DNA of 64,000 nt from Ottowia sp. (GTDB lineage Bacteria; Pseudomonadota; Gammaproteobacteria; Burkholderiales; Burkholderiaceae_C), in NCBI RefSeq assembly GCF_046348305.1, contig NZ_JAXMEM010000012.1, positions 35,618 to 99,617 on the forward strand, read 5' to 3'. Shown piece by piece: positions 4,927 through 52,280 of the stretch (position 1 is its first letter; every line of letters begins with the position of its first letter). The position numbers were made by a program, and so were the translations under genes. A model generated the notes under the pieces. The model saw only the letters and a list, made by a program, of their open reading frames with translations. It did not search any database and was not told the DNA's origin.

Positions 4927-6210
4927 TCAGCTTGAGGCTGCGGCGCCGGGCGCTGCTTCCAGCGCGCGGGCGATCGCCTCGGCACGCGCCTGCTGCACGG
5001 CGGCGCCGATCTGCGGCCCGCGCGCGCCGCGCGCCTGGGCCGCGCGCGCAATGGGCTCGGTGGCCACCGCCAGCGCGGCGGCCAGCGCCTGCTGCAGGCG
5101 CGGGCGCTGCGGGTAGGCCGACTCTTCCAGGCCCAGCCGGCCGCGCGCATCGCACTCGCAGGCCAGCAGCACGTCGGCAAAGCGCTCGGGCTTGCGCAGC
5201 GCGTCGCAGCGCTCGAGCAGGCGCAGCAGCGCGGCGGCGTTCAGGCCGGCGCTGCGGTGGATGTTGCCGTGCTCACGCGCCACCACGTCGGCCAGTTCGG
5301 TGCACTCGGTGGGCACGCGCAGGCGCTGGCCGACGGCTTTCAGCAGGGTGCTGCTGCGCTGCTCGTGGCCCAGGTGCCTTGGCAGCACATCGGCCGGCGT
5401 CGTGCCCTTGCCCAGGTCGTGCATTAGGCAGGCCCAGCGCACCGCCAGCGGGGCGTGCAGGCGCGCGGCCGTCTGCAGCACCATCATCACGTGCACGCCG
5501 GTGTCGATCTCGGGGTGATGGCTGGCGGTTTGCGGCACGCCCCACAGGCGCTCCAGCTCCGGCAGCACCACGGCCAGCGCGCCGCATTCGCGCAGCACGT
5601 CGAACATGCGCGCCGGGTGCGCCTCCATCAGGCCGCGCGCCAGCTCCTGCCACACGCGCTCGGGCACCAGGTGGTCGGCCTCGCCCGCCTGTACCATCCG
5701 GCGCATCAGGGCCATGGTTTCGGGCGCGATGGAAAAGTCATGAAAGCGCGCGGCAAAACGCGCCACGCGCAGGATGCGCACCGGGTCTTCGGCGAAGGCG
5801 GCCGTCACGTGGCGCAGCACGCGCGCCTGCAGATCGCGCTGGCCACCGTAGGGGTCGATCAGGTCAGCATTTGAATCGAATAGGCCTTTAGCGCCCGTCC
5901 AATCGGCGCAAGCAGCTATTGAATTGATAGTCAAATCGCGCCGGGCCAGGTCTTCTTGCAGCGTCACGTCGGGGCTGGCGAGCACCGTGAAGCCGCGATA
6001 GCCGCGCCCGCTCTTGCGCTCGGTGCGCGCCAGCGCGTATTCCTCATGCGTCTGTGGATGCAGAAAAACCGGAAAGTCCTTGCCCACGGGCACGAAGCCG
6101 CGCGCCGCCATCTCCTCGGGCGTGGCACCCACCACCACCCAGTCGCGGTCCTGCACCGGCAGGCCCAGCAGCCCGTCGCGCACCGCACCGCCGACCATGT
6201 AGATTTGCAT
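4927..6210 (-). CDS. cca: CCA-adding tRNA nucleotidyltransferase with HD domain
   Basis: [43 protein letters not shown]. Confidence 0.96.
5871..5930. repeat. ~60-bp palindromic repeat family A, copy in frame inside cca
   Basis: TTGAATCGAATAGGCCTTTAGCGCCCGTCCAATCGGCGCAAGCAGCTATTGAATTGATAG; AT-rich; shares GCGCAAGCAGCTAT core with intergenic copies. Confidence 0.85.
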
Positions 6211-6249
6211 GGCCGCAGTGTATCGGCGGGGCTTGGCCCGAGGCCTCGG

Positions 6250-6891
6250 TCAGGCCGGCACCGCCGCGTCCCACGCCGCAACCCGAACCAGCCGCGGGTC
6301 GTCGGCGTGCTCCACCAGCATTTGCCGCACGCGGCCCTGCCACAACGTGCCGAAGCGCGCCAGTTCGTCGGCGCTGGCGCGACCGGCGGCGGCGCGCGGC
6401 AGCAGGGCGCGCATCTCGTCGGTCCAGGGCACGACCGAGGCGTCCAGCTCCACCTGCACGGCGCGACCGCTGTCCTGGCGGCGCAGGCCCAAGGTGCCCT
6501 GCACCGGTTGATCGAAGCGCAGCAGCTGGTGGCGCGAAAAGCGCCCGCCGATGCCGTGGAAGCCGGTCTCGGGCGCCGCGCCGGTGATGAGCTGCACCAC
6601 GGTGCCAACCACGCCGTTGGCGCCGTCCTCGCGGCCGCCCCGCATGAAGACCTCGACCTCGCCGCGCACCGGTGTTTCATCGCCATACAGCGCACGCAGG
6701 CCGCGCACCGTCATCAGCCAGGCGCCGGCCACCGTGGGGCACGAATGGCCGGCCAGGCGCACGGCATCGGCGTAGCGATAGGTCATCAGGCCGCCGCGTG
6801 CGGCGCCCAAAAATTCGGCCAGCGGGTCGCGCAGCGTGATCTGCGGGGCGTCGGCAAAAAAGTCGGGAAAGGTGGATTCGGTGCTTTGCAT
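6250..6891 (-). CDS. FmdE-like (GHSCP motif) protein
   Basis: AVRLAGHSCPTVAGAW motif; start MQSTESTFPDFF chosen at 6891. Confidence 0.65.
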   Translation of the reverse strand: MQSTESTFPDFFADAPQITLRDPLAEFLGAARGGLMTYRYADAVRLAGHSCPTVAGAWLMTVRGLRALYGDETPVRGEVEVFMRGGREDGANGVVGTVVQLITGAAPETGFHGIGGRFSRHQLLRFDQPVQGTLGLRRQDSGRAVQVELDASVVPWTDEMRALLPRAAAGRASADELARFGTLWQGRVRQMLVEHADDPRLVRVAAWDAAVPA

Positions 6892-7074
6892 GGCGGGTTC
6901 CGGAAACGATGGGGCGCGGGGCCTGATGCGCATTGGGCCGCATCGGCCCGCGGGCCGCAGACGTCGCCGGCCATGCCCGCACCCGCAGCGTGTGATTCGG
7001 GCCGGCGCCACGGCCCCGGCGGCAATCGGGGTTTGGGGTCATGATGCGCGTTTCGGATCGACTCCAACCCCCGC

Positions 7075-8208
7075 ATGAAATGCCTCGGACAACTCGCCCA
7101 CGGTGCGCGCCTGGAGCGCATGCACGCCTCACCGCTGTGGGCGGACAACGGCTTTCGCAACCGGCACCCCATCGCCGCCGGCCTGCGCGATGCGAGCGTG
7201 CCCATGCCTTCGCTGCGCGACATGCTGTGGCCGGGCGGGCGGCGTGTGCCGCGCTCGCCGCTGCCCGCCAACGACCCACGCGCCGCCTGGCTGCACACGC
7301 CGCAAAGCGGCCTGCGCGCCACCTGGCTGGGTCACTCCACCGTGCTGCTGGAGGTGGACGGCTGGCGCGTGCTGACCGACCCGGTATGGGGCCGGCGCGC
7401 ATCGCCGCTGATCGGCGTGGGGCCCAAGCGCTTTCAGCCGGTGCCGGTGGGCTTGCGCGATTTGCCCGCGGTGGATGTCATCGTGATCTCGCACGACCAC
7501 TACGACCACCTGGACTACCCCACCATCCGGGCGCTGGCGCGCTCGGACGTGCCCTTCGCCACCTCGCTGGGCGTGGGCGCGCACCTGCAAGCCTGGGGCA
7601 TCGCGCCCGAGCGCATCCACGAGCTGGACTGGTGGGACAGCTGGGCGGTGCCGAACACCGGCATCACGATCACCGCCGCTCCGTCGCAGCACTTCAGCGG
7701 CCGCACGCTCAAGACACGCAACAGCACGCTGTGGTCGTCACTGGTGGTGCGCGGGCCGCGCCACGCGGTGTTCTTCAGCGGCGACACGGGCCTGTCGGGC
7801 GAATACGCCGCCATCCGCCAGCGCCTGGGCCCGTTCGACCTGGCGCTGCTGGAAGTCGGCGCCTACTACCCCGCCTGGGGCGACATGCACCTGGGCCCCG
7901 ACCACGCGCTGGAGGCGCTGGCGCTGCTGGGAAATCCGCCCCTGTTGCCGGTGCACTGGGGCACTTTTGCCTTGGCCATGCATGACTGGGACCAGCCGCC
8001 CGAGCGCCTGCTGGAGCTGGCGCCGCGCACCAGCGCGCGCCTGGTGATGCCGCGCTTGGGCGAGGCCGTCGAGCCCGCACATGCCGAGCGCGTGCAGCCC
8101 TGGTGGCGCCAGGGTGCGGCGCCCGCGTCTGCCCTGCCCCCAGCCGCCGAAACCGCACCGCCGCTCACGCCCGAGCAGGTCGCCCGCCTGGACTGGCCGG
8201 GCGACTGA
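7075..8208 (+). CDS. MBL-fold metallo-hydrolase (NAPE-PLD/RomA-like)
   Basis: TWLGHST, LTDPVW, SHDHYDHLD, FFSGDTG, PVHWGTF. Confidence 0.9.
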   Translation: MKCLGQLAHGARLERMHASPLWADNGFRNRHPIAAGLRDASVPMPSLRDMLWPGGRRVPRSPLPANDPRAAWLHTPQSGLRATWLGHSTVLLEVDGWRVLTDPVWGRRASPLIGVGPKRFQPVPVGLRDLPAVDVIVISHDHYDHLDYPTIRALARSDVPFATSLGVGAHLQAWGIAPERIHELDWWDSWAVPNTGITITAAPSQHFSGRTLKTRNSTLWSSLVVRGPRHAVFFSGDTGLSGEYAAIRQRLGPFDLALLEVGAYYPAWGDMHLGPDHALEALALLGNPPLLPVHWGTFALAMHDWDQPPERLLELAPRTSARLVMPRLGEAVEPAHAERVQPWWRQGAAPASALPPAAETAPPLTPEQVARLDWPGD

Positions 8209-8217
8209 CGCGCGGCC

Positions 8218-8901: not shown

Positions 8902-8958
8902 GGAAGATCTCCGTATTGCGCGGCGCTCATGCTAACGCGCCGACGCGCGCCCCGGGGT

Positions 8959-9930: not shown

Positions 9931-9972
9931 GTCAAACCTCCAAAATCGTGATGGGTGCAAGCGCAGTCTGAT

Positions 9973-10098
9973 TCAAGCTCGCCCACCCTGCATCGACCTT
10001 GCGCAAAGTCCAAGCATTGTCATGGTGTCAGGGGATCCCGCCTGCGCCAGCTTGCCCGGGCGCAGATCGGACAACACGTTGCGGTCGATCAGGTACAC
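9973..10098 (-). pseudogene. Truncated VapC/PIN toxin (N-terminal fragment only)
   Basis: GTG 3 nt after antitoxin stop reads MYLIDRNVLSDLRPGK (PIN start consensus YLLDTNVLSEL), loses similarity and stops after 41 aa. Confidence 0.7.
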
Positions 10099-10100
10099 GC

Positions 10101-10364
10101 TCAGGCATCCAGACGCAGGACGACGCCGATCGGATCGATCTCGAAGTTGGCCACTTCGGACGAATTGGGTAGGCCGTCCATCCGCTCCAGCAAGGACACC
10201 GTGCGTTCGTTGCCGGCCAGGAACTGGTCGACATCCATGGTCAGCAACACGAAGGCGGGCTCACCGTGGTCGGTGATGAAAACGGGCCCTTGCCTGGCCA
10301 AGTGCTTGGCACGGCTGACGTTGTGACCGAACTCGCGGCTGGTGATGGTGTGGATGGCGCTCAC
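10101..10364 (-). CDS. Phd/YefM-family type II antitoxin
   Basis: TITSREFGHNVSRAKHLARQGPVFITDHGEPAFVLL; start overlaps slt stop (GTGA). Confidence 0.85.
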   Translation of the reverse strand: MSAIHTITSREFGHNVSRAKHLARQGPVFITDHGEPAFVLLTMDVDQFLAGNERTVSLLERMDGLPNSSEVANFEIDPIGVVLRLDA

Positions 10365-12382: not shown

Positions 12383-12391
12383 GAACCCATT

Positions 12392-12976: not shown

Positions 12977-13028
12977 GGCTGTACGCAGGTTGACGCAGCA
13001 GAAACAGCGTCCGGGACTTCAACCGTTG

Positions 13029-14528: not shown

Positions 14529-14529
14529 C

Positions 14530-14585
14530 GCTACTTGATTGATAGCTGGTTGCGCTTGATGAACAAGCGCAATCGCTTGTTTCAA
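14530..14585. repeat. Repeat family A, intergenic copy
   Basis: GATAGCTGGTTGCGCTTG-ATGAA-CAAGCGCAA hairpin. Confidence 0.75.
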
Positions 14586-14672
14586 CGAATATTTTCATGG
14601 ATCTCGCGGCAGCATGGGCGTGATTTGGAGTAGGCTTGCAGCCATCCAAAACAACCGGCTGCCGGAGACACC

Positions 14673-16985
14673 ATGAGCAAACCCCTGAGCCCCGCCGAGG
14701 CTGCGCTGCGCGATGCGGCGCGTGAATACCACCGCAGTCCCACGCGCGGCAAGATTTCCGTCACGCCGACCAAGCCGCTGGCCAACCAGCTCGATCTGTC
14801 GCTGGCCTATTCGCCCGGCGTGGCCTATCCGTGCCTGGACATCCAGGCCGATCCGAGCAAAGCCGCCGAATACACCTCGCGCGGCAACCTGGTGGGCGTC
14901 ATCACCAACGGCACGGCCGTGCTGGGCCTGGGCAACATCGGCGCGCTGGCGGGCAAGCCGGTGATGGAGGGCAAGGGGTGCCTCTTCAAGAAGTTCGCCG
15001 GCATCGACGTGTTCGACATCGAGCTGGACGAGCACGACCCCGACAAGCTGGTGGACATCATTGCCGCGCTGGAGCCCACGCTGGGCGGCGTCAATCTGGA
15101 GGACATCAAGGCGCCCGAGTGCTTCTATATCGAGAAGAAGCTGCGCGAGCGCATGAACATCCCCGTGTTCCACGACGACCAGCACGGCACGGCCATCATC
15201 TCGTCGGCGGCGCTGCTCAACGGCCTGGAGCTGGTGGGCAAGAAGATCGGCGACGTCAAGGTAGCCGTGAGCGGCGCGGGCGCCGCCGCCATCGCCTGTC
15301 TGGACGTGATGGTGGCCTTGGGCGTCAAGCCGGCCAACGTGCACGCCTGCGACTCCAAGGGCCTGATCTACGCCGGCCGCGCCAGCGTGGACGCCTCCAA
15401 GGCGCGCTACGCGCAGCCCGACACCGGCGCGCGCACCTTGGCCGACGTGGTCAAGGGGGCCGACGTGTTTCTGGGCTGCTCGGCCGCCGGCGTGCTGACG
15501 CAAGAGATGGTGAAAACCATGGCCGACAAGCCCATCATCCTGGCGCTGGCCAACCCCGAGCCCGAGATCCGCCCCGAGGACGCCAAGGCCGCGCGGCCCG
15601 ACTGCATCATCGCCACCGGGCGCAGCGACTACCCCAACCAGGTCAACAACGTCCTGTGCTTTCCCTACATCTTCCGCGGCGCGCTGGACTGCGGCGCCAG
15701 CAAGATCACCGAGGAGATGAAGCTGGCCTGCGTGCGCGAGATCGCCGCCCTGGCCAAGGCCGAGACCAGCGCCGAGGTGGCCACCGCCTACGCCGGCAAG
15801 GAGCTGCACTTCGGCCCCGACTACATCATCCCCACGCCGTTTGATCCGCGCCTGATCCTGCGCATCGCCCCGGCAGTGGCCGAGGCGGCGGCCAAGTCGG
15901 GCGTGGCCGAGCGCCCCATTGCCGACCTGGAGGCCTATCGCACGCAGCTGACGCGCTTCATCTACCAGACCGGCATGGTGATGCAGCCGGTGCTGACGGC
16001 GGCGCGCGCGGCCGATGCGGCGCACAAGCGCGTGGCCTACGCCGAGGGCGAGGACGAGCGCGTGCTGCACGCCGCGCAGGTGGTGGTGGACGACAAGCTG
16101 GCGCGCCCCATCCTGATCGGCCGCCCGGCCGTGATCGAGCAGCGCATCCACAAGGCCGGGCTGCGCATCCGCCTGGGCGTGGACGTGGACAACGTCAACC
16201 CCGAGGAGGATTCGCGCTTTCGCCAGTACTGGGAGACCTACCACCACCTGATGGGGCGCAACGGCGTCAGCGTCGAGGCCGCCAAGGCCACGGTGCGCCG
16301 CTCCAACACCGTCATTGCCGCGCTGATGGTGCACCTGGGCGATGCCGACGCCATGCTGTGCGGCACCGTGGGGCGCTACCACGCGCACCTGGACAACATC
16401 CGCGACATCATCGGCGTCGAGCCCGGCGCGCCCGACCTGGCCGCGCTCAACGCCATCATGCTGCACGAGCGCACGCTGTTCATCTGCGACACCTACGTGC
16501 ACGAAGACCCCAGCGCCGAGCTGCTGGCCGGCATCGCCAGGATGGCCGCCACCGAGGTGCACAACTTCGGCCTGCCGCCCAAGGTGGCGTTTTTGTCGCA
16601 CTCCAATTTCGGCTCGTCCAAGGACGCCTCGGCGCTCAAGGTGCGCCGCGCGCGCGACCTGTTCCGCGCGCTGGCCCCCGATGTCGAATGCGACGGCGAA
16701 ATGCACGGCGACAGCGCCCTGTCGGCCAAGCTGCGCGCTGCCACCATGCCCGACAGCACCCTGAGCGGCGAGGCCAACCTGCTGGTGTGCCCCAACCTGG
16801 ACGCGGCCAACATCCTGTTCAACGTGCTCAAGACCGTGGCCGGCAGCGGCGTCACCATTGGCCCCATGCTGCTGGGCGCGGCCGCGCCGGCGCACGTGCT
16901 CACGCCCTCGTCCACCGTGCGCCGGCTGGTCAACATGACCGCGCTGGCGGTCGATGAGGCACAGGTGCGCCGGCGCAACCGGTGA
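14673..16985 (+). CDS. maeB: NADP-dependent malic enzyme with phosphotransacetylase-like C-terminal domain
   Basis: [60 protein letters not shown]. Confidence 0.96.
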
Positions 16986-16995
16986 TCTGTCGGAT

Positions 16996-17058
16996 GCTCT
17001 GATATCAATAGCTGCGCGCGCCCATCACAAGGGCACAAGCAGCCATTTCGACGTTCAA
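16996..17058. repeat. Repeat family A, diverged intergenic copy
   Basis: TCAATAGCTGCGCGCGCCC...GGGCAC...TTCAA between converging maeB and yceI-like genes. Confidence 0.6.
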
Positions 17059-17062
17059 GCGC

Positions 17063-17638
17063 TCACTGTCTGAACGCCTCGATGGTGGCCGTGATGCGCA
17101 CGTTCTTGGGCATGCCCGCGTCCACCAGATAGTTCATGCCCCATTGGGTGCGGTCGATCACCGCCTCGAAGTCGCCGCCGCAGGCCTCGGTCCTGGCGCG
17201 CTTGTTGGGGTAGCACTTGAATTGATTGGCCTTGAGCGTGACCGGCAGCGTGCGTCCCAGCAGCGTGAGCTGGCCGGGCACCTCGACGAGGCGCTCGCCG
17301 TCGAACACCAGCCGGTCCGAGACGAAGCGCATGGTCGGGTATTGGCGCGCGTCGAACAGATCGGGCGAGAGCAGATGCTCGTCAAAGCCCCGGGAGCCGC
17401 TGTAGACGCTGGCCACCTGCACGAACAGGTCGATGGCGCCCGCCTTGGCCACGGGGTCGAAGCGCACCGAGCCCGCCACCTCGTCAAAGCGCGCGCGGTT
17501 GACCGAGGCGCCAAAGTGGTCGATGGCGAAGGTGGCGTAGGTGTGATCGGCGTCCAGGGCATAGCGCGCCGGCTCGGCATGGGCCGCGCCAAAAACCAGC
17601 CAGGCCAGGCCGAGAAAGGTGGACAAATGTTTGCGCAT
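17063..17638 (-). CDS. YceI-family periplasmic lipid/isoprenoid-binding protein
   Basis: Signal peptide; YALDADHT, HLLSPDLFDARQYPTMRF, IDRTQWG. Confidence 0.9.
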   Translation of the reverse strand: MRKHLSTFLGLAWLVFGAAHAEPARYALDADHTYATFAIDHFGASVNRARFDEVAGSVRFDPVAKAGAIDLFVQVASVYSGSRGFDEHLLSPDLFDARQYPTMRFVSDRLVFDGERLVEVPGQLTLLGRTLPVTLKANQFKCYPNKRARTEACGGDFEAVIDRTQWGMNYLVDAGMPKNVRITATIEAFRQ

Positions 17639-20488: not shown

Positions 20489-20596
20489 AACAGCCGGACG
20501 CAGAGGACGCAAAAAATTCCATTCATGAGGACCGGATCCAGATTGAAGTTTTCTGCGCCTTTTGCGAAACCTTTGCGTCCTCTGCGTCCGGCTGTT
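20489..20596. repeat. 108-bp element with perfect 25-bp terminal inverted repeats (family B)
   Basis: AACAGCCGGACGCAGAGGACGCAAA (20489-20513) / TTTGCGTCCTCTGCGTCCGGCTGTT (20572-20596). Confidence 0.85.
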
Positions 20597-20623: not shown

Positions 20624-20682
20624 TACAAGCGGTTTCAGTCGCTCGCGCCCATCCCGTGCGTGCAAGCAGCTATCATTTTTGA
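20624..20682. repeat. Repeat family A, intergenic copy abutting a start codon
   Basis: ...GTGCAAGCAGCTATCATTTTTGA immediately before ATG 20683. Confidence 0.7.
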
Positions 20683-21915
20683 ATGAACCCTTCCATGTTT
20701 CCGCGCGCCGCGCTGCTGGCCTTGTGCGCCGCCTGGGCGCTGCCCGGCGCGGCGCAGGACGCGCCCGCGCCCAGCCTCGACCCCGCCGAATTCAAGACCT
20801 GCCTGAGCCAGCTGCAGGGTACGCCGGCGTTTCGCGCCATCACGGCGCAGACCTTTGCCGAGCAGACCCGCACGCTCGCACCCGACCCCTCGGTGCTGGT
20901 GCTGCTCAATCGCCAGCCCGAGTTCACCATGCCGGTGTGGGACTACATGGCCGTGCTGGACGACGCCGAGCGCGTGCAGGACGGGCGGGCGGCCTTTGCC
21001 AAGTGGCAGGATGTGCTGCAAAAGATCGAGGCGCAGACGGGCGTGCCCGCCGCCATCATCACCGGCGTATGGGGCGTGGAGAGCAATTTCGGCCAGAACC
21101 TGGGCGGGCGCCCGCTGGTGCAGTCGCTGGCCACGCTGTCGTGCTTCGGGCGCCGGCAGGCCTACTTTCGCGGCGAGTTCGCGGCGGCGCTGCGCATCAT
21201 CCAGGAGGGCCACATCGCGCCCGACAAGCTGACCGGCTCCTGGGCCGGCGCGTTCGGGCAGACGCAGTTCATGCCCAGCACCTTTTTTGCCAACGCGGTG
21301 GACTTCGACGGTGACGGGCGGCGCGACATCGTGGACAGCGTGCCCGACGCGCTGGCCTCGACCGCCAAATTCCTGCAAAACGCCGGCTGGCGGCGCGGCG
21401 AGCCCTGGGGCTTTGAAGTGCGCCTGCCCAAGGGCTTCGACAGCTCGGGCGCAAGCCGCAAGGCCAAGCAGCCCATCGCCACCTGGCAGCGCGCCGGCCT
21501 GACGCTGGCGGATGGCCAGCCCCTGCCGGGCGATCTGCCCAGCGCCGGCCTGATGATTCCGGCCGCCGGCGGCCCGGCCTTTCTGGTAGGGCGCAACTTC
21601 GACGCGCTGTACCGCTACAACGCCAGCGAGAACTACGCCCTGGCCATCGCCCACCTGGCCGACCTGATCGCCGACCCGCAGGCGCCCCTGGCCTTTGCCA
21701 CGCCCTGGCCCACGGACGATCCGGGCCTGTCGCGCGCCGAGAACCGCGAGCTGCAAACCCTGCTGCTGGCGCGTGGCCACGACATCGGCACGGCCGACGG
21801 CATGATCGGCGCCAAGACGCGCGAGGCCATCAAGGCCGAGCAGCAAAGGCTGGGCGTCAAGGCCGACGGGCGCGCCGGCCAGAAGCTGCTGGCCGCGCTC
21901 AGAAAAGCGGATTGA
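20683..21915 (+). CDS. Lytic murein transglycosylase (MltB/SltB-like) with C-terminal PG-binding domain
   Basis: Signal peptide; WGVESNFG, GSWAGAFGQTQFMPS, YNASENYA, DGMIGAKTR. Confidence 0.92.
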   Translation: MNPSMFPRAALLALCAAWALPGAAQDAPAPSLDPAEFKTCLSQLQGTPAFRAITAQTFAEQTRTLAPDPSVLVLLNRQPEFTMPVWDYMAVLDDAERVQDGRAAFAKWQDVLQKIEAQTGVPAAIITGVWGVESNFGQNLGGRPLVQSLATLSCFGRRQAYFRGEFAAALRIIQEGHIAPDKLTGSWAGAFGQTQFMPSTFFANAVDFDGDGRRDIVDSVPDALASTAKFLQNAGWRRGEPWGFEVRLPKGFDSSGASRKAKQPIATWQRAGLTLADGQPLPGDLPSAGLMIPAAGGPAFLVGRNFDALYRYNASENYALAIAHLADLIADPQAPLAFATPWPTDDPGLSRAENRELQTLLLARGHDIGTADGMIGAKTREAIKAEQQRLGVKADGRAGQKLLAALRKAD

Positions 21916-38072: not shown

Positions 38073-38076
38073 CGAG

Positions 38077-39347: not shown

Positions 39348-40532
39348 ATGGCGGACAATTCGCCCGTGTCTTCCACCGCCGCCTCACACGCCCCATCCGC
39401 CGAACTGGCCGCGCACATCGTCCACGCCATCCAGGCCGCCGGCGGCTGGCTGCCCTTTGACCGCTTCATGCAGCTGGCGCTGTACGCGCCGGGCCTGGGC
39501 TACTACGCCCATGGCTCGCGCAAGTTCGGCCAGCTGGCGCGCGACGGCAGCGACTTCGTGACCGCGCCCGAGCTTTCGCCGCTGTTTGGCCAGACGCTGG
39601 CCGGCGCCGTGGCCGAGGCCTTGCAGCACACCGGCACGGATGAGGTGTGGGAATTTGGCGCGGGCTCCGGCGCGCTGGCCGAGCAGGTGCTGGGCGAGCT
39701 GGCGCGGCGCGGCCAGTCGCTGCGCCGCTACACCATCGTCGATGTGTCGGGCGCTCTGCGCACGCGTCAGCAGCAGCGCCTGGCCGCGCACGGCGCCATC
39801 GTGCAATGGGCCGACTCCCTGCCCGAGACCATGACCGGCGTGGTGCTGGGCAACGAGGTGCTGGACGCCATGCCGGTCAAGCTGCTGGCGCGGGTGGACG
39901 GGACGTGGCACGAGCGGGGCGTGGTCTGCAAGCCAAATCGGCCGCTGACGCCCAATGGACGAGCGCAAGCAGCTATCAATTCAGAAGCATTCGCATGGCA
40001 TGACCAGCCCACCGCGCTGCGCCCGCCGGTGGAGATCGACGGCGAGCACGACTGCGTGACCGAGATCCATCCCCAGGCCGAGGCCTTCGTGCGCACCCTG
40101 GCCGAGCGCCTGCTGCGCGGCGGCCGCGGCGCGGCGTTTTTCATCGACTACGGCTTTCCGGAGGCCGAGTACTACCACCCGCAGCGCCACATGGGCACCC
40201 TGGCCTGCCACCGCGCGCACCGCATGGACGACGAGCCGCTGGCGGACGTGGGCGAGAAGGACATCACCGCCCACGTCAACTTCACCGGCATCGCCCTGGC
40301 CGCGCAGGACGCGGGCCTGTCGGTGCTGGGCTACACCAGCCAGGGGCGCTTTCTGTTCAACGGCGGCCTGGCCGAGCGCATGGCCGCGCTGCCGCTCATC
40401 GAGCGCGCGCCCGCGATGAAGCTGCTGGCCGAGCACGAAATGGGCGAGCTGTTCAAGGTCATCGGCCTGGCCGTGGGCGAAGGCTGGGCCGCGCAAGGGT
40501 TTGCGACGGGCGACCGCACGCACCGGCTGTGA
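39348..40532 (+). CDS. SAM-dependent methyltransferase (NDUFAF7/MidA family)
   Basis: FDRFMQLALYAPGLGYY, DFVTAPE, EFGAGSG, NEVLDAMP, IDYGF, DITAHVNF. Confidence 0.92.
   Translation: MADNSPVSSTAASHAPSAELAAHIVHAIQAAGGWLPFDRFMQLALYAPGLGYYAHGSRKFGQLARDGSDFVTAPELSPLFGQTLAGAVAEALQHTGTDEVWEFGAGSGALAEQVLGELARRGQSLRRYTIVDVSGALRTRQQQRLAAHGAIVQWADSLPETMTGVVLGNEVLDAMPVKLLARVDGTWHERGVVCKPNRPLTPNGRAQAAINSEAFAWHDQPTALRPPVEIDGEHDCVTEIHPQAEAFVRTLAERLLRGGRGAAFFIDYGFPEAEYYHPQRHMGTLACHRAHRMDDEPLADVGEKDITAHVNFTGIALAAQDAGLSVLGYTSQGRFLFNGGLAERMAALPLIERAPAMKLLAEHEMGELFKVIGLAVGEGWAAQGFATGDRTHRL
39928..39988. repeat. Repeat family A, copy in frame inside the methyltransferase
   Basis: GCAAGCCAAATCGGCCGCTGACGCCCAATGGACGAGCGCAAGCAGCTATCAATTCAGAAGC. 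Confidence 0.85.
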
Positions 40533-41447: not shown

Positions 41448-41480
41448 GCAAGACCGCACTGAAGTGCTGAGGAACCTTCC

Positions 41481-43274: not shown

Positions 43275-43350
43275 GAATGCCCACACGCTCTGGATTGGCC
43301 GGATCATCGGCCATGATAAACACGCGGCCCGTTCGGCAGGCAGCGGCCCT

Positions 43351-44505: not shown

Positions 44506-44544
44506 GGGCCGAATTATCCCGCGCGATCACCGTAGCATCGCGCC

Positions 44545-45144
44545 ATGACCACCACCCACCTGCTCTACCTGCACGGCTTTCGCTCCTCGCCCCAGTCCAA
44601 CAAGGCGCGACAGATGGCGGCGCGCGTGCAGGCCGAGCACCCCACCGTGCACTGGTGGTGTCCGCAACTGCCGCCCTCGCCCCGCGCCGCCGCGGCGCTG
44701 ATCGATGAGGGCACTGCCGACTGGCCGGCTGAGTACATGGCCGTCGTCGGCTCTTCGCTGGGCGGCTACTACGCCAGCTGGCTGGCCGAGCGGCGCGGCT
44801 GCCGCGCGGTGCTGCTCAACCCCGCCGTCGATCCGGCGCGCGACCTGGCCGCGCACGTCGGCGAGCAGAGCGCCTGGCACGACCCGGCGGCGAATTTCTT
44901 CTTTCGCGCCGAATACATCGAGGAGCTGCGCGCCCTGCGCGCCGGGCCGCTCGCCGACCCGAGCCGCATCCTGGCCGTCATCGCCAAGGGCGACGAAGTG
45001 CTCGCCTGGCGCGAAATGGTCGTGCGCTACGCCGGTGCGCATATCCGGCTGCTGGAGGGGGGCGATCATGCGCTGTCGGACTTTCCGGCGCTGATCGACG
45101 AGGTGATTGAATTCCTGCATCTCGCCCGGGATCAACAGTCCTGA
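44545..45144 (+). CDS. YqiA/YcfP-family esterase
   Basis: LYLHGFRSSPQS, VGSSLGGYYA, LLNPAV, GGDH. Confidence 0.92.
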   Translation: MTTTHLLYLHGFRSSPQSNKARQMAARVQAEHPTVHWWCPQLPPSPRAAAALIDEGTADWPAEYMAVVGSSLGGYYASWLAERRGCRAVLLNPAVDPARDLAAHVGEQSAWHDPAANFFFRAEYIEELRALRAGPLADPSRILAVIAKGDEVLAWREMVVRYAGAHIRLLEGGDHALSDFPALIDEVIEFLHLARDQQS

Positions 45145-45197
45145 TTTGATAGCTGTTTGCGCTTGCTGAGCCTGCGCAAACACCTGATTTCATTCAT
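45141..45197. repeat. Repeat family A, intergenic copy
   Basis: TTGATAGCTGTTTGCGC...GCGCAAA hairpin overlapping the yqiA-like stop. Confidence 0.75.
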
Positions 45198-45320
45198 AAA
45201 CCGCCGCCGGACGGCCGCAGCGCCGCGCCGCGTGCCCGCTCACCGGCCCGCTCACCGGCCTGTTTTGTGCTCCCCCAGACAGCGCACCCACCGCCGTTGA
45301 TGGGACAATCCATCCCCTCC

Positions 45321-47381
45321 ATGTACATGCTTTTCGACGAAGCCGGCAAATTTTTGGCCGGCCGCATCCTCTCCGAGGCCGAAGCCTCCGCCCAGGTCGA
45401 GCTCGACTCGGGCAAGCGCGTCAAGGTCAAGGCCGCCAACCAGCTGCTGCGCTTTGACAAACCGGCGCCCGCCGAGCTGCTGGCGCAGGCCGAATCACAG
45501 GCCACCGACATCGACCCGGCGCTGGCCTGGGAATTCGCCCCCGAGGGCGAGTTCGGCTTTGCCGAACTGGCGGCCGACTACTTCGGCGCGGCGCCCGACA
45601 CCGTGCAGCAGGCCGCCGCCCTGATGGCCCTGCAGCAGGCGCCGCACTACTTTCGCCGCGCCGGCAAGGGCCGCTTCAAGAAGGCGCCGGCCGACATCGT
45701 GGCGCAGGCGCTGGCGGCCATCGAGAAGAAAAAGCAGCTCGCCGCGCAGATCGCCGGCTGGGCGGGCGAGCTGGCGGCCGGCCGCTGCCCGGCGCCCATC
45801 GGCGAGCAGCTCTACAAGATCCTGTTCCGGCCGGACAAGAACGCCCCCGAATACAAGGCCGTGGTCGAGGCCGCGCGCGCCACGCAGCTGGCGCCGCTGA
45901 CACTGCTGCAGCGGGCGGGCGCGATCACCTCGGCCTACCAGTTTCACTGGCAGCGCTTTTTGTTCGAGAACTTCCCCAAGGGCACCGACTTTCCGCCGCT
46001 GCCGCCCCTGGCCCTGCCGCAGGATTTGCCGCTGGCGCCGGTGCAGGCCTTCTCCATCGACGACTCGCAGACCACCGAGATCGACGACGCGCTGTCGCTG
46101 CAAGGCCTGGGCACGGGTACCGTGGAGCTGGGCATTCACATCGCGGCGCCGGGCCTGGCGATCGCGCCCGGCGATGCGCTGGACGACGTGGGCCGCAACC
46201 GCCTGTCCACCGTCTACATGCCGGGCTACAAGATCACCATGCTGCCCGACGACGTGGTGCAGGCCTGCACCCTGGCCGAAGGGCAGGATGTGCCGGCGGT
46301 GTCGCTGTACGTCACGCTCGATGAAGCCAGCCTGGCCATCCAGGCCAGCGAGACGCGCATCGAGCGCGTGCCCATCGTCGCCAACCTGCGCCACGACCAG
46401 CTCGATGCGCTCATCACGCCCGAATGGCTGGCGGGCACCCATGACGCAAGCCAAACCGGGGCTTTGCCCGCCCCCATCCAGCGCGAGCAGCTATCGTTTT
46501 TATATCGTCTGGCCCAGCACCTGAAGGCCAAGCGCGAGCAGGTGCGCGGCAAGCCCGAAACCTTCAACCGGCCGGACTACAGCTTCAAGCTGGTCGGCGT
46601 GGCCGATGGCCAGGCGCCCACGGGCGACGAGCAGGTGCAGATCACCCCGCGTCAGCGCGGCGCGCCGCTGGACCTGATGGTGGCCGAGCTGATGATCCTG
46701 GCCAACAGCAGCTGGGGCGAATGGCTCAAGGGCCTGGGCGTGCCTGCCATCTACCGCAGCCAGGCCAGCCTGCTGCCGGGCATCAAGGTGCGCATGGGGG
46801 CCAAGGCGCTGCCGCACGCGGGCATCGGCGTGCCCAGCTATTGCTGGAGCACCTCGCCGCTGCGCCGCTATGTCGATCTGGTCAACCAGTGGCAGATCAT
46901 CGCCGCCGCACGCCACGGCACGGCCGCCGCGCTGGCCGCGCCCTTCAAGCCCAAGGACGCCCAGCTGTTCGCCATCATCAGCGCGTTCGACGCGGCCTAC
47001 ACGGCCTACAACGGCCACCAGGCCGCCATGGAGCGCTTCTGGACGCTGCAATGGCTGTGCCAGCACGGCGCCACCGAGCTGACGGCCAGCCTGCTGCGCG
47101 AGCAGGCCGGTGGCGCCTGGCTGGTGCGCGCCGACGAGCTGCCCCTGGTCTTCACCGTCATGGGCGCGCAAGCCCTGACCCGCGGCGCGCGCGTGCGCGT
47201 CAGGCTGGGCAACACCGACCCGATCGCGCTGGACGTGCACGGCACCGTGCTCGAGGTGCTGGCCGACACGCTGCCCGTCGCCGCCAGCGACACGCCCGAC
47301 GACGAGGACGCCGACGCCGGCCCGCTGGCCATCGCGGTGGACATGAACGAAGCCGAGCCCGCCGGCGATACCCCCGCATGA
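45321..47381 (+). CDS. RNB-domain exoribonuclease (RNase II/R family)
   Basis: SIDDSQTTEIDDALS, TVYMPG, AELMILAN, YCWSTSPLRRYVDL. Confidence 0.92.
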   Translation: MYMLFDEAGKFLAGRILSEAEASAQVELDSGKRVKVKAANQLLRFDKPAPAELLAQAESQATDIDPALAWEFAPEGEFGFAELAADYFGAAPDTVQQAAALMALQQAPHYFRRAGKGRFKKAPADIVAQALAAIEKKKQLAAQIAGWAGELAAGRCPAPIGEQLYKILFRPDKNAPEYKAVVEAARATQLAPLTLLQRAGAITSAYQFHWQRFLFENFPKGTDFPPLPPLALPQDLPLAPVQAFSIDDSQTTEIDDALSLQGLGTGTVELGIHIAAPGLAIAPGDALDDVGRNRLSTVYMPGYKITMLPDDVVQACTLAEGQDVPAVSLYVTLDEASLAIQASETRIERVPIVANLRHDQLDALITPEWLAGTHDASQTGALPAPIQREQLSFLYRLAQHLKAKREQVRGKPETFNRPDYSFKLVGVADGQAPTGDEQVQITPRQRGAPLDLMVAELMILANSSWGEWLKGLGVPAIYRSQASLLPGIKVRMGAKALPHAGIGVPSYCWSTSPLRRYVDLVNQWQIIAAARHGTAAALAAPFKPKDAQLFAIISAFDAAYTAYNGHQAAMERFWTLQWLCQHGATELTASLLREQAGGAWLVRADELPLVFTVMGAQALTRGARVRVRLGNTDPIALDVHGTVLEVLADTLPVAASDTPDDEDADAGPLAIAVDMNEAEPAGDTPA
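46446..46506. repeat. Repeat family A, copy in frame inside the RNB nuclease
   Basis: GCAAGCCAAACCGGGGCTTTGCCCGCCCCCATCCAGCGCGAGCAGCTATCGTTTTTATATC. Confidence 0.78.
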
Positions 47382-48295: not shown

Positions 48296-49020
48296 TGCGC
48301 CACGTGGGGCGCTGGCTGCTGCTGGCCGCCGCGGCCGCGCTGGTGCTGCAACTGTTTTTCATCAGCCGCATCGCGCTGATGGCCGTGATCGACCCACAGT
48401 CCACCACCTTCGAGCGCTCCGAGGCCTGGCGCCTGGCCCAAGACGGCCCCCTGCGCTGGAGCCAGCACTGGCGCGACTATGACCAGATCGCCGACACCTT
48501 GAAGCGCGCGGTGATCGCGTCCGAGGACGACAGCTTCACCAACCACGACGGCGTGGACTGGGAAGCCATGGAGCGCGCCTGGGAGCGCAACGCCAAGGCC
48601 GAGCAGGCAGCAGCCACCCGCGCCGAGCAAAACCTGCCGGCGCGCCCCATCAAGATCCGCGGCGGCTCCACCATCACCCAGCAACTGGCCAAAAACCTGC
48701 TGCTGTCGGGCGAGCGCACCCTGCTGCGCAAGGGCCAGGAGCTGGTGCTGACCTTTGCGCTCGAGCGCCTGCTGTCCAAGCGCCGCATCCTGGAGATCTA
48801 CCTCAACCACGTCGAGTGGGGCACCGGCGTGTTCGGCGCCGAAGCCGCCGCGCAGCACTACTTCAAGAAGAGCGCCGCGCAACTGAGCGCGTGGGAGGCC
48901 GCCCGCCTGGCCGTCATGCTGCCGCGCCCGCGCTACTTCGAGCAGCGCCCGCGCTCGGCCTACCTCAACCAGCGCGCCGCCACGATCGTCGCGCGCATGA
49001 AGCGCGCCGAGCTGCCATGA
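48295..49020 (+). CDS. mtgA: Monofunctional peptidoglycan transglycosylase
   Basis: [46 protein letters not shown]. Confidence 0.93.
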
Positions 49021-49553
49021 GGATTCTGGGCATCGACCCCGGCCTGCGCACCACCGGCTTTGGCGTGCTCGACGTGGACGGCCCGCGCCTGGCCTATGTC
49101 GCCAGCGGCGTCATCCGCACGCACGACGCCGCCCAGGGCGATTTGCCCGCGCGGCTGAAGCTGCTGTTCGACGGCATCCGCGAGGTGCACGCCCGTTTTC
49201 AACCGCAGGCCGCCGCGGTCGAGATCGTCTTCGTCAACGTCAACCCCCAAGCCACGCTGCTGCTGGGCCAGGCGCGCGGGGCCTGCGTCACGGCGCTGGT
49301 GCATTGCGGCCTGCCGGTGGCCGAATACACCGCGCTGCAAATGAAAAAAGCCGTGGCCGGCCACGGCAAGGCCGCCAAGGCGCAGGTGCAGGCCATGGTG
49401 CAGCGCCTGCTGGGCCTGCCCCAAGCCCCCGGCCCCGACGCCGCCGACGCGCTGGGCCTGGCCATCACCCACGCCCACGCCGGCGGCACGCTGGCGCGCC
49501 TGCACGCCGCCGGGCTGGGCCGCACCACCAGCAGCATGTACCGCCGCAGCTGA
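49017..49553 (+). CDS. ruvC: Holliday junction resolvase RuvC
   Basis: [38 protein letters not shown]. Confidence 0.95.
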
Positions 49554-49573
49554 TCCGGTGCGCGCCCCCCGGA

Positions 49574-49699
49574 TCACTGGACTACCCTCCGCGCTGCGCG
49601 CTGCGGGGTTTCGCGCTTGGGAGCGGCCCGGCGCGCTCACTGGACTACCCTCCGCGCTTGCGCGCTGCGGGATTCGCGCTTGGGAGCGGCCCGGCGCGC
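49574..49699. repeat. Two tandem 63-bp copies of a GC-rich repeat (family C)
   Basis: Unit TCACTGGACTACCCTCCGCGC(T)TGCGCGCTGCGGG(GT/A)TTCGCGCTTGGGAGCGGCCCGGCGCGC; period 63. Confidence 0.9.
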
Positions 49700-50152
49700 T
49701 CACGCCGGCTTGTCGGGCGTGCGCCGCAATTCGCGCCGCCGCGCGGCGATCGGGTCGATGGCGGCCTTGCGCCCCGCACGCGCCGGCTTGCCCGCGCGCG
49801 CCAGCGGCACGGCCGCCACCGCCTCACCCAGCTCCGGCGGGGCCGCGCCCGCGTCCTGCCAGACAAAACCAGGGCGCGCGCCGCGCAGCCCCAGCTGTAC
49901 GCGCCCGGCGCACACCTGCACGCTGACGGCCGCGCCCACCAGCGATGCCGGCAGGCCCTGCGCCCAGGCCAGCAGGCGCTGGCGCTGCACCTGCTGGCGG
50001 TGGGCCAGCAGCTCCCGCTGCGCCTGCTTGACCTGCGCCTCGCGCTGCGCGCGCGTCAGGCGCGGGTGCTCCAGCACGGCGGCGACGCGCCGGGCCAGCG
50101 CCCGCTCGACGGGGTCGGGGGATTGGGATTCGAGAAACTGAAACGTCGACAT
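49700..50152 (-). CDS. Hypothetical Arg/Ala/Gln-rich protein
   Basis: AAGGAG RBS before ATG; upstream TTGACA-17-TGGCAT; no family recognised. Confidence 0.55.
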   Translation of the reverse strand: MSTFQFLESQSPDPVERALARRVAAVLEHPRLTRAQREAQVKQAQRELLAHRQQVQRQRLLAWAQGLPASLVGAAVSVQVCAGRVQLGLRGARPGFVWQDAGAAPPELGEAVAAVPLARAGKPARAGRKAAIDPIAARRRELRRTPDKPA

Positions 50153-50235
50153 GAACACTCCTTGGCATGGTGAAAACCAGCGCGACGCAGGCGGTGCAAA
50201 CAGGCGCACCTGTCCCCGCGCAACGCTTCCAGCTC

Positions 50236-50264
50236 ATGCCATCGGGGTGTTCAGTTCATGTCAA
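50236..50264 (-). promoter_or_regulatory. Possible sigma70 promoter for 49700-50152
   Basis: TTGACA (50264-50259), 17 nt spacer, weak -10 TGGCAT. Confidence 0.35.
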
Positions 50265-50315
50265 CATCCAAAAAAATCAGGGGTGAATTCTCGCTCAATT
50301 TCCGCCTTGCGGCGC

Positions 50316-50690
50316 TCACTGCGAGCGCTTGCGCTGGCCCGGTGCGCCCTTCTCCCGCCGCCTTTGCCGGTACCACTTCGGGTCGCGGTTGATTCTGACT
50401 TCTTCCACGAAGTGCTCTGGCGCGCACGCCATCATGGCCATGGGGCTGCGGCGGATCAGCTCGCAGGACTCCTCGAACGTGCGGCACAGCGTCACCTCGC
50501 AGCCGCAGCTGCCGCACACCCGCACCCGCGCGTCGTCGGTGGCCAGCATGCGCGCCCAGCGTTTGGGGCACAGCATGCCCCAGCGGGGTGTGCAGTACTG
50601 CACCTCCACCCGCATGAGGAAAGCGTAGGAATCGGTGGGGTCGGGCAGCGGTGCTTGATTGCGTTGCAAGGTCATCAACCAAAATAGCAT
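50316..50690 (-). CDS. Hypothetical Cys-rich (possible Zn-binding) protein
   Basis: CPKRW...VRVCGSCGCEVTLC cluster; no family recognised. Confidence 0.5.
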   Translation of the reverse strand: MLFWLMTLQRNQAPLPDPTDSYAFLMRVEVQYCTPRWGMLCPKRWARMLATDDARVRVCGSCGCEVTLCRTFEESCELIRRSPMAMMACAPEHFVEEVRINRDPKWYRQRRREKGAPGQRKRSQ

Positions 50691-50715
50691 GAATGCCCTT
50701 CGGGACTTTCCCTAG

Positions 50716-50876
50716 GAGGCTGTCGGACTCGGAACGTCGATAGCGAAAATCGGCCCCAGCGAGCACAGTTTTTGCCGGATTTGCAGCCCACTAGCCGAGC
50801 TAATGGGCAAAAAGACGGTGGAAAATGGGCCGCTGCAGTCGATTTGCAGCCAACGATTTCCAAGTCCGACAGCCTC
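50716..50876. mobile_element. 161-bp MITE with 14-bp TIRs and CTAG target duplication (IS5-like)
   Basis: CTAG|GAGGCTGTCGGACT ... AGTCCGACAGCCTC|CTAG; no transposase. Confidence 0.85.
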
Positions 50877-50935
50877 CTAGGCGTATCGCCAAGGTGTCCC
50901 AGACAAGCCCCCCCGCCTTGGCTACAGTGCCGGGC

Positions 50936-52090
50936 ATGAATCCCACACCCCGCCCCCTTTTCAGCACCGAGCACGACGCCTTTCGCGCGCTGGTGCGCCG
51001 CTTTTGCGAAAAGGAAATCGCGCCGCACCACGCCGCCTGGGAAGAAGCTCACGGCGTGCCGCGCGCCGTGTGGCGGCGCGCCGGCGAGCTGGGCCTGCTG
51101 GGCTGCTGGCTGCCCGAGGCGCAGGGCGGCCACGGGGCCGATTTGCTGTTCGACATGATTGTGGCCGAGGAGCTGGGCCGCATCGGCGCCACCGGCCCCG
51201 GCTTTGCCCTGCACTCCGTCATCGTCATGCCCTACCTCACGGCGCATGCCGCGCCCGCCTTGCAGCGCGCCCTGCTGCCCGCGATGGTGCGCGGCGAGTC
51301 GATCAGCGCCATCGCCATGACCGAGCCCGGCGCCGGCAGCGACCTGGCCGGCATGCGCACGCAGGCGCGCCGCGATGGCGATCACTACGTGCTGAGCGGC
51401 CAGAAGACCTTCATCACCAACGGCCACAACGCCGACGTGATCGTGGTGGCCTGCAAGACCGACGCCAGCCAGGGCGCGCACGGCGTGTCGCTGCTGGTGG
51501 TGCAGGATGGCATGGCCGGCTTCACGCGCGGGCGCAACCTGCGCAAGATCGGCCAGCACGCGCAGGACACGGCCGAGCTGTTCTTCGACAACGTTCGCGT
51601 TCCGGCCGACCACCTGCTGGGCGAGGAGGGCAAGGGCTTCAAGTACCTGATGCAGAAGCTGCCGCAAGAGCGCCTGCTCATCAGCGTGCAGTGCCAGGCC
51701 CGCGCCGAAGCCGCCTTCGACTGGACCGTGCAGTACGTGCAGGAGCGCCAGGCCTTCCGGCAGCGCCTGGCCGATTTTCAGAACACCCGCTTCAAGCTGG
51801 GCGCGCTGGCCGCCGACCTGGCCGCCGGCCGGGCCTATTGCGACCAGTTGCTAGCCCGCCACCTCGCCGGCGAACTGGACGCCGTGGGCGCCGCCGCCGG
51901 CAAGCTGTGGCACAGCGAGCTGCTGGGCCGCGTGACCGACGAGTGCCTGCAGCTCTTCGGCGGCTACGGCTACATGCACGAATACCCCATCGCCCGCGCC
52001 TGGAGCGACGCGCGCATCGAGCGCATCTACGGCGGCACGTCCGAGATCATGAAGGAGATCATCGCCCGCGATCTGCTGGATGGGCGTTGA
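50936..52090 (+). CDS. Acyl-CoA dehydrogenase (LCAD-like)
   Basis: AIAMTEPGAGSDL, GQKTFITNG, DTAELFFD, LPQERL, GGYGYMHEY, IYGGTSEIMK. Confidence 0.95.
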   Translation: MNPTPRPLFSTEHDAFRALVRRFCEKEIAPHHAAWEEAHGVPRAVWRRAGELGLLGCWLPEAQGGHGADLLFDMIVAEELGRIGATGPGFALHSVIVMPYLTAHAAPALQRALLPAMVRGESISAIAMTEPGAGSDLAGMRTQARRDGDHYVLSGQKTFITNGHNADVIVVACKTDASQGAHGVSLLVVQDGMAGFTRGRNLRKIGQHAQDTAELFFDNVRVPADHLLGEEGKGFKYLMQKLPQERLLISVQCQARAEAAFDWTVQYVQERQAFRQRLADFQNTRFKLGALAADLAAGRAYCDQLLARHLAGELDAVGAAAGKLWHSELLGRVTDECLQLFGGYGYMHEYPIARAWSDARIERIYGGTSEIMKEIIARDLLDGR

Positions 52091-52093
52091 AGG

Positions 52094-52280
52094 CAGCCGA
52101 GCGCAAAGGCAACGCAAAGAACGCCAAAACACCGTCAACTGAGCTTGATTGGCCGAAAGGCCTTTTTTTGCAAGCGCAGGCAGCTATCAAATCGGCAGCG
52201 GCGAATTTGGATTCTTCTGCGCCCTTTGCGAATTCTTTGCGTCCTCTGCGTCCGGCCGTTCGGCTTTGCGTCCGGCTGTC
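52094..52280. repeat. Family B element with a family A copy nested inside (52146-52198)
   Basis: TTCTGCGCCCTTTGCGAATTCTTTGCGTCCTCTGCGTCCGGC matches 20551-20592; CAAGCGCAGGCAGCTATCAAAT inside. Confidence 0.78.

Follow-up and report, generated by a model that had tools for sequence, protein, structure and literature searches.

Palindromic repeats that lie in frame in protein-coding genes have so far been treated as a peculiarity of Rickettsia and of a few other reduced or unusual genomes. The Rickettsia palindromic elements (RPEs) are repeats of about 100-150 nt that are found in frame in housekeeping genes (Ogata et al. 2000, 2002; PMC10969869), and among bacterial MITEs (transposable elements of the miniature inverted-repeat type), in-frame fusions are given by intragenic ERIC copies, Coxiella QMITE1 and Anabaena MITEs (PMC10969869). 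Here we describe a family of imperfect palindromes of about 62-67 nt in a 64,000-nt stretch of the genome of Ottowia sp., a bacterium of activated sludge (contig NZ_JAXMEM010000012.1, positions 35,618 to 99,617; hereafter the window), which has a G+C content of ~70% over its whole length. Eight copies of the element are present in the window, five of them intergenic and three in frame in genes, as the original prediction for this DNA had proposed, and we consider it probable that they are mobile repeats that behave like RPEs.

The likeness to RPEs is one of behaviour, and the host lineages are unrelated. Both are dispersed palindromic families with copies in intergenic DNA and in frame in unrelated housekeeping genes, where a recurring peptide results; the inserts of RPEs lie in fold-compatible loops, as those of the element probably do, and in both families old insertions are common to related species. 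In contrast to RPEs, the element measures ~62 nt and not ~100-150 nt, its hosts are free-living Betaproteobacteria with 62-70% G+C from sludge, water and soil instead of reduced, AT-rich intracellular Alphaproteobacteria, and its intragenic copies use at least four frames or orientations, seem to overwrite native codons (8-16 residues gained) and have a core conserved at synonymous sites.

Like MITEs, which depend on DDE transposases, the element is small, non-coding, non-autonomous and multi-copy, its presence at a site differs between relatives, it can supply start and stop codons, and it may be accompanied by a short target duplication, for which one pair of sites is a candidate. Its inverted repeat, however, is internal; its outer ends do not form terminal inverted repeats and no partner insertion sequence was identified, whereas a neighbouring true MITE of 108 nt has terminal inverted repeats of 25 nt. 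Repetitive extragenic palindromic (REP) sequences and their doublets (REPINs) consist of GTAG and a palindrome (GC-rich, imperfect, 20-40 nt), are extragenic by definition and are mobilised by REP-associated tyrosine transposases (RAYTs), which are Y1 enzymes similar to those of IS200/IS605. On its reverse strand, the element has ATAG before a GC-rich palindrome, which recalls this layout; like REP sequences, it shows an excess at 3' ends and in spacers between convergent genes, and has apparently been inherited vertically over long periods within the family. It differs from REP sequences in its tetranucleotide (ATAG, not GTAG), in the conserved AT-rich flanks that are part of the unit, in being intragenic (three of the eight window copies and, the CCA site aside, ~10% of the copies in related loci), and in occurring as singletons and not as the inverted doublets known as REPINs or bacterial interspersed mosaic elements (BIMEs). 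Given the ATAG-plus-palindrome layout, a RAYT-type mechanism may apply to the element. With the DNA uptake sequences and uptake signal sequences (DUS/USS) of Neisseriaceae and Pasteurellaceae it has in common a family-wide core that is tolerated in coding DNA, where it shapes peptides, and AT-rich flanks. DUS/USS are motifs of 9-12 nt that are strongly over-represented on their own, at ~1 per kb; the core of the element, by contrast, is essentially confined to the 60-nt unit, its density is ten times lower, and a case of whole-unit insertion is seen.

Identification and anatomy of the repeat family

A search of the window for the 13-nt core CGCAAGCAGCTAT with at most two mismatches gave nine occurrences, compared with 2.3 expected, and none of 100 shuffled sequences reached nine. 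All nine fall in eight units of ~60 nt that align over their full length, the ninth occurrence being the left arm of the copy at 16996. An nhmmer profile of these eight copies agreed within a few bases with the places named in the original prediction and, palindromic self-hits aside, had no other window match better than E 0.5. In addition, we trained an independent profile on 70 copies, all from other genomes, and left out of the training set the window sequence, any CCA gene (encoding the tRNA CCA-adding enzyme) and the loci orthologous to the intragenic sites of the window. This profile recovered all eight copies with E-values between 1e-12 and 1.6e-4. The eight copies are singletons, more than 1 kb apart from one another.

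For comparison we took 80 loci that surround the CCA gene, with each Comamonadaceae species represented by one genome, and seven more loci from relatives. L001 comes from Ottowia pentelensis, L087 from Ottowia sp. GCA_016703855 and L086 from another relative; the best relatives of the CCA, methyltransferase and ribonuclease (RNase) genes of the window, which are the hosts of the intragenic copies, belong to Ottowia and to Burkholderiaceae from activated sludge or wastewater.

Alignment of copies from many genera showed a unit of ~62-67 nt with the consensus tTTTcAAGcCAAATCGGCCTCTAGCGC, a loop of 9-11 nt, and GCGCAAGCAGCTAT cAATTTaATAGCA. The AT-rich ends and the GCGC...GCGC hairpin that had been claimed for the family are thus present, although the hairpin is imperfect and its arms pair only in part. 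The best-conserved parts are the right arm GCGCAAGCAGCTAT and a small inverted repeat, GCTAT-N7-ATAGC, whereas the left arm and the loop are loose. Pairing is confined to the internal arms. The outer ends, TTTCAAGCC... on one side and ...TTAATAGCA on the other, do not complement each other in reverse, and single-strand folding was better than that of shuffled sequence in only two of the eight window copies. The reverse strand reads ATAG-CTGCTTGCGC...GCGCTAGAGG, which is ATAG followed by an imperfect GC-rich palindrome of ~37 nt. In Rfam, the only match at the level of the gathering threshold was a tRNA, and relaxing the cut-off to E 1 around three of the copies gave no credible match. The AT-rich right end was also checked by eye, using consensus spacing, as a promoter and as a binding site of integration host factor (IHF), and neither fits.

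The consensus is open in three of its six reading frames. The first reads F Q A K S A S S A C Q A S A S S Y Q F N S, the second F K P N R P L A L V K R A Q A A I N L I A, and the third, which is antisense, A I K L I A A C A R L T S A R G R F G L K. A fourth frame, which is the one used in the RNase gene, needs one TAG removed from the consensus. The intragenic copies use at least four frames or orientations.

Longer palindromes of 80-95 nt were observed at L041 236-315 and L051 ~4200-4300. Both of their arms correspond to the well-conserved ATAGCTGCTAGCGCACG / CGTGCGCTAGCAGCTAT and are followed by the same CAATTTAATA tail. They may represent a sister or parental form of the family.

Intragenic copies and the loops of their host proteins

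The genes that harbour the three intragenic copies encode a multifunctional CCA-adding/repair enzyme (4927-6210, minus strand, assigned by full-length homology), a SAM-dependent methyltransferase of the MidA/COG1565 (Methyltransf_28) family (39348-40532, plus strand, E 1e-98 to the Burkholderia thailandensis structure 4F3N), and an RNB-domain ribonuclease (45321-47381, plus strand, assigned by homology). The G+C content at third codon positions (GC3) is 0.82-0.90 over the whole frames, and its periodicity runs on both sides of each insert. The codons of the inserts themselves stand out, with a GC3 of 0.36 in the CCA gene, 0.45 in the methyltransferase gene and 0.62 in the RNase gene, compared with 0.89-0.93 in the rest of each gene. 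Since GC3 periodicity and full-length homology coincide, the three host frames are real genes. It had also been considered that the intragenic copies might be artefacts, either chance matches in spurious open reading frames (ORFs) or two adjacent genes read through. The 231 window ORFs of at least 100 residues are indeed mostly spurious; against this explanation, the three hosts are single, full-length, conserved genes with Pfam domains, hundreds of orthologues carry the same segment, periodicity continues on both sides of the inserts, and profiles blind to the intragenic copies matched them with E-values of 1e-12 (CCA), 1e-9 (methyltransferase) and 2e-6 (RNase), which disposes of matches no better than chance. 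We regard an artefact as having a negligible probability.

The methyltransferase gene is the cleanest of the three cases. Copy 5 (39927-39989, plus strand) lies in it in the sense orientation and encodes KPNRPLTPNGRAQAAINSEA; the independent profile matched it with E 1.3e-9. Its 60 nt AAGCCAAATCGG...CAGCTATCAATTCAGAAGCA correspond to the element from end to end and read K P N R P L T P N G R A Q A A I N S E A. The segment between the motifs ERGV and FAW measures 18-21 nt in ~26 loci of other Comamonadaceae genera and at most 48 nt in any such locus, compared with 66 nt in L086 and the window and with 90 nt in L087. In residues, a turn of 6-7 in ~35 other Comamonadaceae stands against 22 in the window; the net gain is 14-16 residues. 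Among protein matches, the insert is present in every relative of at least 76% identity and missing in several orthologues of 71-75% identity (P0139, P0140, P0145, P0149, P0154, P0221 and P0224), as well as in the B. thailandensis structure 4F3N. In an AlphaFold model of the window protein (mean predicted local distance difference test score, pLDDT, 79.6), residues 199-212 have a pLDDT below 50 and lie between the confident strands 186-194 and 215-221. According to this model, the element expanded a hairpin turn and the insert is predicted to be a disordered loop.

Copy 1 (5866-5931, nhmmer 5872-5931, plus strand) is antisense to the CCA gene, in whose frame it encodes 22 residues; its E-value with the independent profile was 1e-12. 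For the loop test in this gene we used a separate profile built without any CCA gene. It matched the loop after the RRDLTIN motif with E 2e-11 in the window, and the same loop in ~35 loci of Ottowia, Acidovorax, Diaphorobacter, Polaromonas, Rhodoferax, Giesbergeria, Simplicispira and Curvibacter. The loop lengths are graded, from a short AQDEHGK turn in Ramlibacter-type genes to six more residues in many Acidovorax, 11 to 13 more in Ottowia and Polaromonas, and longer loops still in some Rhodoferax; the net gain in the window is 11 residues relative to the Ramlibacter-type genes. The loop comparison also included an E. coli CCA sequence, on which the conclusion does not depend, as the Ramlibacter-type loci show the same short turn. 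Alignment to 1VFG places the insert in the turn after RRDxTIN. A structure model of the CCA enzyme was rejected as too poor (mean pLDDT 57, head domain below 50, shallow alignment). Five or six other loci, from other genera, have the element at a second and independent site close to the C-terminus. Since the loop length of the window is kept in all of the 120 closest orthologues, the insertion event is old. In Ottowia relatives the CCA gene is adjoined by a gene with TfoX_N, a competence-regulator domain (L001 12458-12877, L003 11273-11689).

In the RNase gene, copy 7 (46447-46507, plus strand) lies in the sense orientation, encodes SQTGALPAPIQREQLSFLYR and was matched by the independent profile with E 1.6e-6. 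The 120 orthologues with 75% identity or more do not differ from the window gene in length, and the element-like DNA is kept in L086 and L087, while most representatives of ~50% identity and below are shorter at the site, commonly with 59 instead of 67 residues, a net gain of eight. Contigs from runs labelled as metatranscriptomes cross the insert without a joint; DNA carry-over into these runs is possible, and the contigs are weak evidence that the insert stays in RNA.

To summarize, the net gain in the three hosts is 8-16 residues, and all three loops are shorter in orthologues free of the element. Loops of the same length with unrelated DNA, the outcome that would have spoken against the proposed RPE-like gain, were thus not what the comparison gave, and the in-frame gain of loops is supported. 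The insertions are old and common to whole clades.

In-frame copies were also detected in related loci, in genes for GlmU, ThiL, a MalK-like ATP-binding cassette (ABC) ATPase and a YhhN-like membrane protein. Those in GlmU occur in several Ottowia, Acidovorax and Giesbergeria, and the loop length differs between genera. Most in-frame copies use the antisense frame giving xIAACADWxGAxGxFD, and this peptide recurs in the CCA, GlmU, ThiL, ABC ATPase and YhhN-like proteins. A match in a short-chain dehydrogenase gene of L076 (25 bits) was rejected; there was no length difference among 33 orthologues, and it is probably a compositional false match.

Essential enzymes, the tRNA CCA-adding enzyme and GlmU, are among the hosts, and the many orthologues with and without the insert are natural controls. 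The behaviour known from Rickettsia is now seen in GC-rich bacteria that live freely and in large numbers in wastewater, soil and ice, and the Comamonadaceae offer a tractable, culturable system for the birth of protein loops from short mobile DNA. For annotation, the element accounts for AT-rich islands of rare codons in GC-rich genes and for differences in loop length between orthologues.

Distribution in Comamonadaceae

A census of 1.45 Mb in 83 Comamonadaceae loci gave ~120 copies. Outside the CCA gene, there are ~1-2 copies per 10 kb in Ottowia, Polaromonas, Giesbergeria, Simplicispira, Diaphorobacter and the window, and ~0.6 per 10 kb in Acidovorax and Rhodoferax; no copies were found in the 21-109 kb each that we sampled from Ramlibacter, Limnohabitans, Variovorax, Paracidovorax and Delftia. 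The family proposed in the original prediction is thus real, but it is not special to this genome and spans many genera of Comamonadaceae. Nothing relevant came up in the literature, either for the core sequence or for repeats of a palindromic or intragenic kind in Acidovorax or Comamonadaceae, and in-frame palindromic mobile repeats have apparently not been described in this family until now.

Using rough, GC3-based gene calls, we counted 22 intergenic copies between convergent genes, 23 between co-directional and eight between divergent ones, whereas the numbers of spacers of these kinds were 128, 410 and 120. The excess at convergent 3' ends is clear. In co-directional spacers, 12 copies had one orientation and 11 the other, which shows no preference. 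Nine of the 85 non-CCA copies in related loci were candidates for an intragenic position, among them the match in L076 and one in an AnmK gene of L041.

A family-wide core could also be a DNA uptake sequence, accumulated by biased uptake and recombination and often found in inverted pairs. Conservation of the core throughout the family and at synonymous sites in coding DNA, the AT-rich flanking tracts, and the TfoX_N gene beside the CCA gene in relatives are in line with this idea. Nevertheless, we judge it very improbable: of the occurrences of GCAGCTAT in 319 kb from element-rich genomes, 36 are inside full elements and three outside, compared with 5.8 expected from base composition; the density is ~1 per 8 kb and not ~1 per kb; the two arms differ in sequence; and at an empty site a complete unit of 67 nt has appeared in one go.

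Two of the loci sampled showed further features at copies of the element. At L008 1648-2135 there is a tandem repeat of 167 bp (2.9 units, 90% matches) with one element copy per unit, and a (CTGC)n run lies just upstream of it at 1529-1563. At L049 5297 (Acidovorax), the element lies between two convergent genes, at a place where L070 and L043 have a terminator-like hairpin, AAACAGCCCCTTCAGGGCTGTTT.

Insertion of a whole unit and its interpretation

At the junction of the transglycosylase gene and ruvC, the window and L086 have an overlapping stop and start, GCC-ATGA-GGATTC. In L087 the same junction reads GCC-ATGA, then an element of 67 nt, then ATGA-GAATCC, which is a gain of 71 nt, and both genes are intact. 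In this pair the complete unit, with the AT-rich flanks as part of it, is seen to have come in at once in L087, and the pair also illustrates how element copies end up in contact with start and stop codons. At another site, between HlyD and ABC genes (L001, L005, L008), the element supplies the upstream TGA as well as the downstream ATG and first codons.

The SLT-epimerase spacer was rejected as an empty site because the window holds a toxin-antitoxin remnant there: positions 9990-10360 contain a Phd/YefM-like antitoxin ORF and an apparent truncated PIN/VapC remnant. In L001 and L003 the same spacer holds a copy of the palindromic element. Other candidate pairs of filled and empty sites were too diverged to define ends.

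In the explanation that we favour, short (~62-67 nt), non-coding imperfect palindromes would have multiplied by insertion in Comamonadaceae genomes. Copies would persist where harm is least, that is, in short spacers, most of all where genes converge, and between cistrons, whose stop (TGA) or start (ATG) the AT-rich ends can provide. Those that landed in frame in a surface turn of a protein may have been kept and translated, adding 8-16 residues; this can happen because three of the six consensus frames are open and a fourth needs one TAG change. We infer that copies spread by transposition, that the inserts are translated and tolerated, and that the integration event replaces a few native codons.

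Several observations weigh against this explanation. Only one clean filled/empty pair was found, and its ATGA could be a 4-bp target duplication, microhomology or the element's own end; since ATGA-like ends recur in many copies, ATGA may belong to the element or be microhomology. Most window copies look old, being found at the same sites in species of only 80-86% protein identity, and they give little indication of recent movement. A mobilising enzyme or transposase partner was not found in the 64-kb window and the 20-kb loci (no genome-scale search for RAYT was made), and the outer ends have no clear terminal inverted repeats. In the AnmK gene of L041 (13511-13562), a match of 35 bits (TASACAASASSYGKQSKQ) comes with no evident length change relative to the Acidovorax orthologue, so this match is not explained by insertion. 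Furthermore, the net gain of 8-16 residues is smaller than the 20 codons of the element, which simple insertion does not predict. Finally, in 31 filled CCA genes from many genera, the core codons ACT, AAT, ATA and GCT are conserved to 100, 94, 100 and 100%, respectively; this points to a core under selection at the DNA level or under homogenisation, and would not be the pattern of a passively decaying selfish insert. The last two points concern the codons of the host genes and are considered in the following.

Apparent codon overwriting and conservation of the core at synonymous sites

That the net gain falls short of the length of the element seems to be due to element DNA that has also overwritten neighbouring native codons. 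The ancestral residues T-I-N-x-I-A of the CCA enzyme are spelled ACT ATC AAT nnn ATA GCT in filled genes, which is the end of the element, and ACG/ACC ATC AAC GCG ATC GCG in empty ones. Element-like DNA also covers the native A-x-E-V-E-A in GlmU and L-x-x-L-Y-x-L in the RNase. From these codons it seems that the element overwrote native codons that it mimics. Either integration at end-like sites replaces native codons, or a duplication was resolved afterwards.

Among the 229 CCA columns with conserved residues, only those 3- and 4-fold degenerate core positions have a dominant codon ending in A or T, and the rest of the insert has diverged among the 31 genes. It is tentatively suggested by this pattern that the core GCAGCTAT-N7-ATAGC acts throughout the genome as a signal that is selected or homogenised at the nucleotide level and kept in essential genes (CCA, GlmU) across genera despite the strong GC3 bias, and that integration replaces end-like native codons. 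If so, protein loops of Comamonadaceae would be shaped by a structured DNA or RNA signal of 60 nt instead of bearing no more than the scars of selfish DNA. A trans-acting factor could be behind the conservation of the core at synonymous sites.

A related explanation is that the element is a host DNA or RNA signal, for example the site of a dimeric protein on GCTAT-N7-ATAGC or a hairpin for transcript ends or processing, with insertion accounting for its origin and function for its persistence; the signal would then be kept by selection or homogenised between copies, and proteins would only have to put up with it. The 94-100% conservation of the CCA core codons beside a diverged insert agrees with this, and so do the intergenic copies, which show the same asymmetry with a conserved right and a loose left arm. 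Copies are moreover kept at orthologous sites across species and enriched between convergent genes, and genera without the family have CCA loops without likeness to the element. On the other hand, a terminator with a U-tract was not seen in most copies (one of three was flagged in 14-21.5 kb), both orientations are equally common, Rfam gave no match, and the folding energies of most copies are not better than those of shuffles. We know of no protein that binds the core of the element, which we also count against this possibility. The gain of a whole unit in L087, at a site that works without the element in relatives, speaks for spread and not for need. Overall we consider a host signal unlikely as the full explanation; because of the conservation at synonymous sites it stays a serious partial rival to the mobile-repeat explanation.

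Intergenic copies in the window and neighbouring features

The five intergenic copies of the window often touch starts and stops, as had been predicted; this holds for copies 3, 4 and 6. Copy 3 (16995-17055, minus strand) has the best-formed hairpin of the eight and fills the 77-nt spacer between the convergent stops of maeB (16985) and yceI (17063). Copy 4 (20625-20684, plus strand) overlaps with its right end the ATG (20683) of a gene for an SLT_2/MltB-like transglycosylase. Copy 6 (45136-45197, minus strand) separates the RNB gene from the UPF0227 gene (44545-45144), whose stop codon at 45142-45144 it overlaps, and the same site is kept in L086 and L087. Copy 2 (14529-14589, minus strand) lies between a DUF2917-like gene and maeB (14673-16985) and is present at the orthologous site in Ottowia pentelensis (L001 2033-2091). 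Copy 8 (52140-52200, plus strand) lies between an acyl-CoA dehydrogenase gene (50825-52090) and a convergent Cons_hypoth698 gene (52291-53418); in place of the left arm it has GGCCGAAAGGCC and then T7.

Intrinsic terminators have a U-tract immediately behind a GC-rich hairpin. Of the three copies in 14-21.5 kb, a simple terminator scan flagged only copy 2 as terminator-like, and copy 8 carries its own GGCCGAAAGGCC and then T7. The case for a pure terminator is weak, while the bias towards convergent spacers is suggestive.

One metagenome contig joins 16976 to 17070 and skips 16977-17069, which comprises copy 3 and both stops and would fuse the two genes. We discarded it, as the skip was found in a single contig of one bioreactor metagenome run with 55 nt on one side only, and is probably an assembly artefact.

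The unrelated MITE of 108 nt mentioned above is located at 20489-20596, 28 nt upstream of copy 4, and has perfect terminal inverted repeats of 25 nt, AACAGCCGGACGCAGAGGACGCAAA / TTTGCGTCCTCTGCGTCCGGCTGTT; the depth of metagenome contigs rises about ten-fold across it. A second, degenerate copy of this type at ~52095-52262 (including 52236-52260) seems to enclose copy 8, which is probably nested inside it, as far as the sequence indicates. Both copies of the unrelated MITE lie within 28-36 nt of copies of the element studied here. A tRNA gene (Rfam RF00005, 66.6 bits) is located at 55820-55892 on the minus strand.

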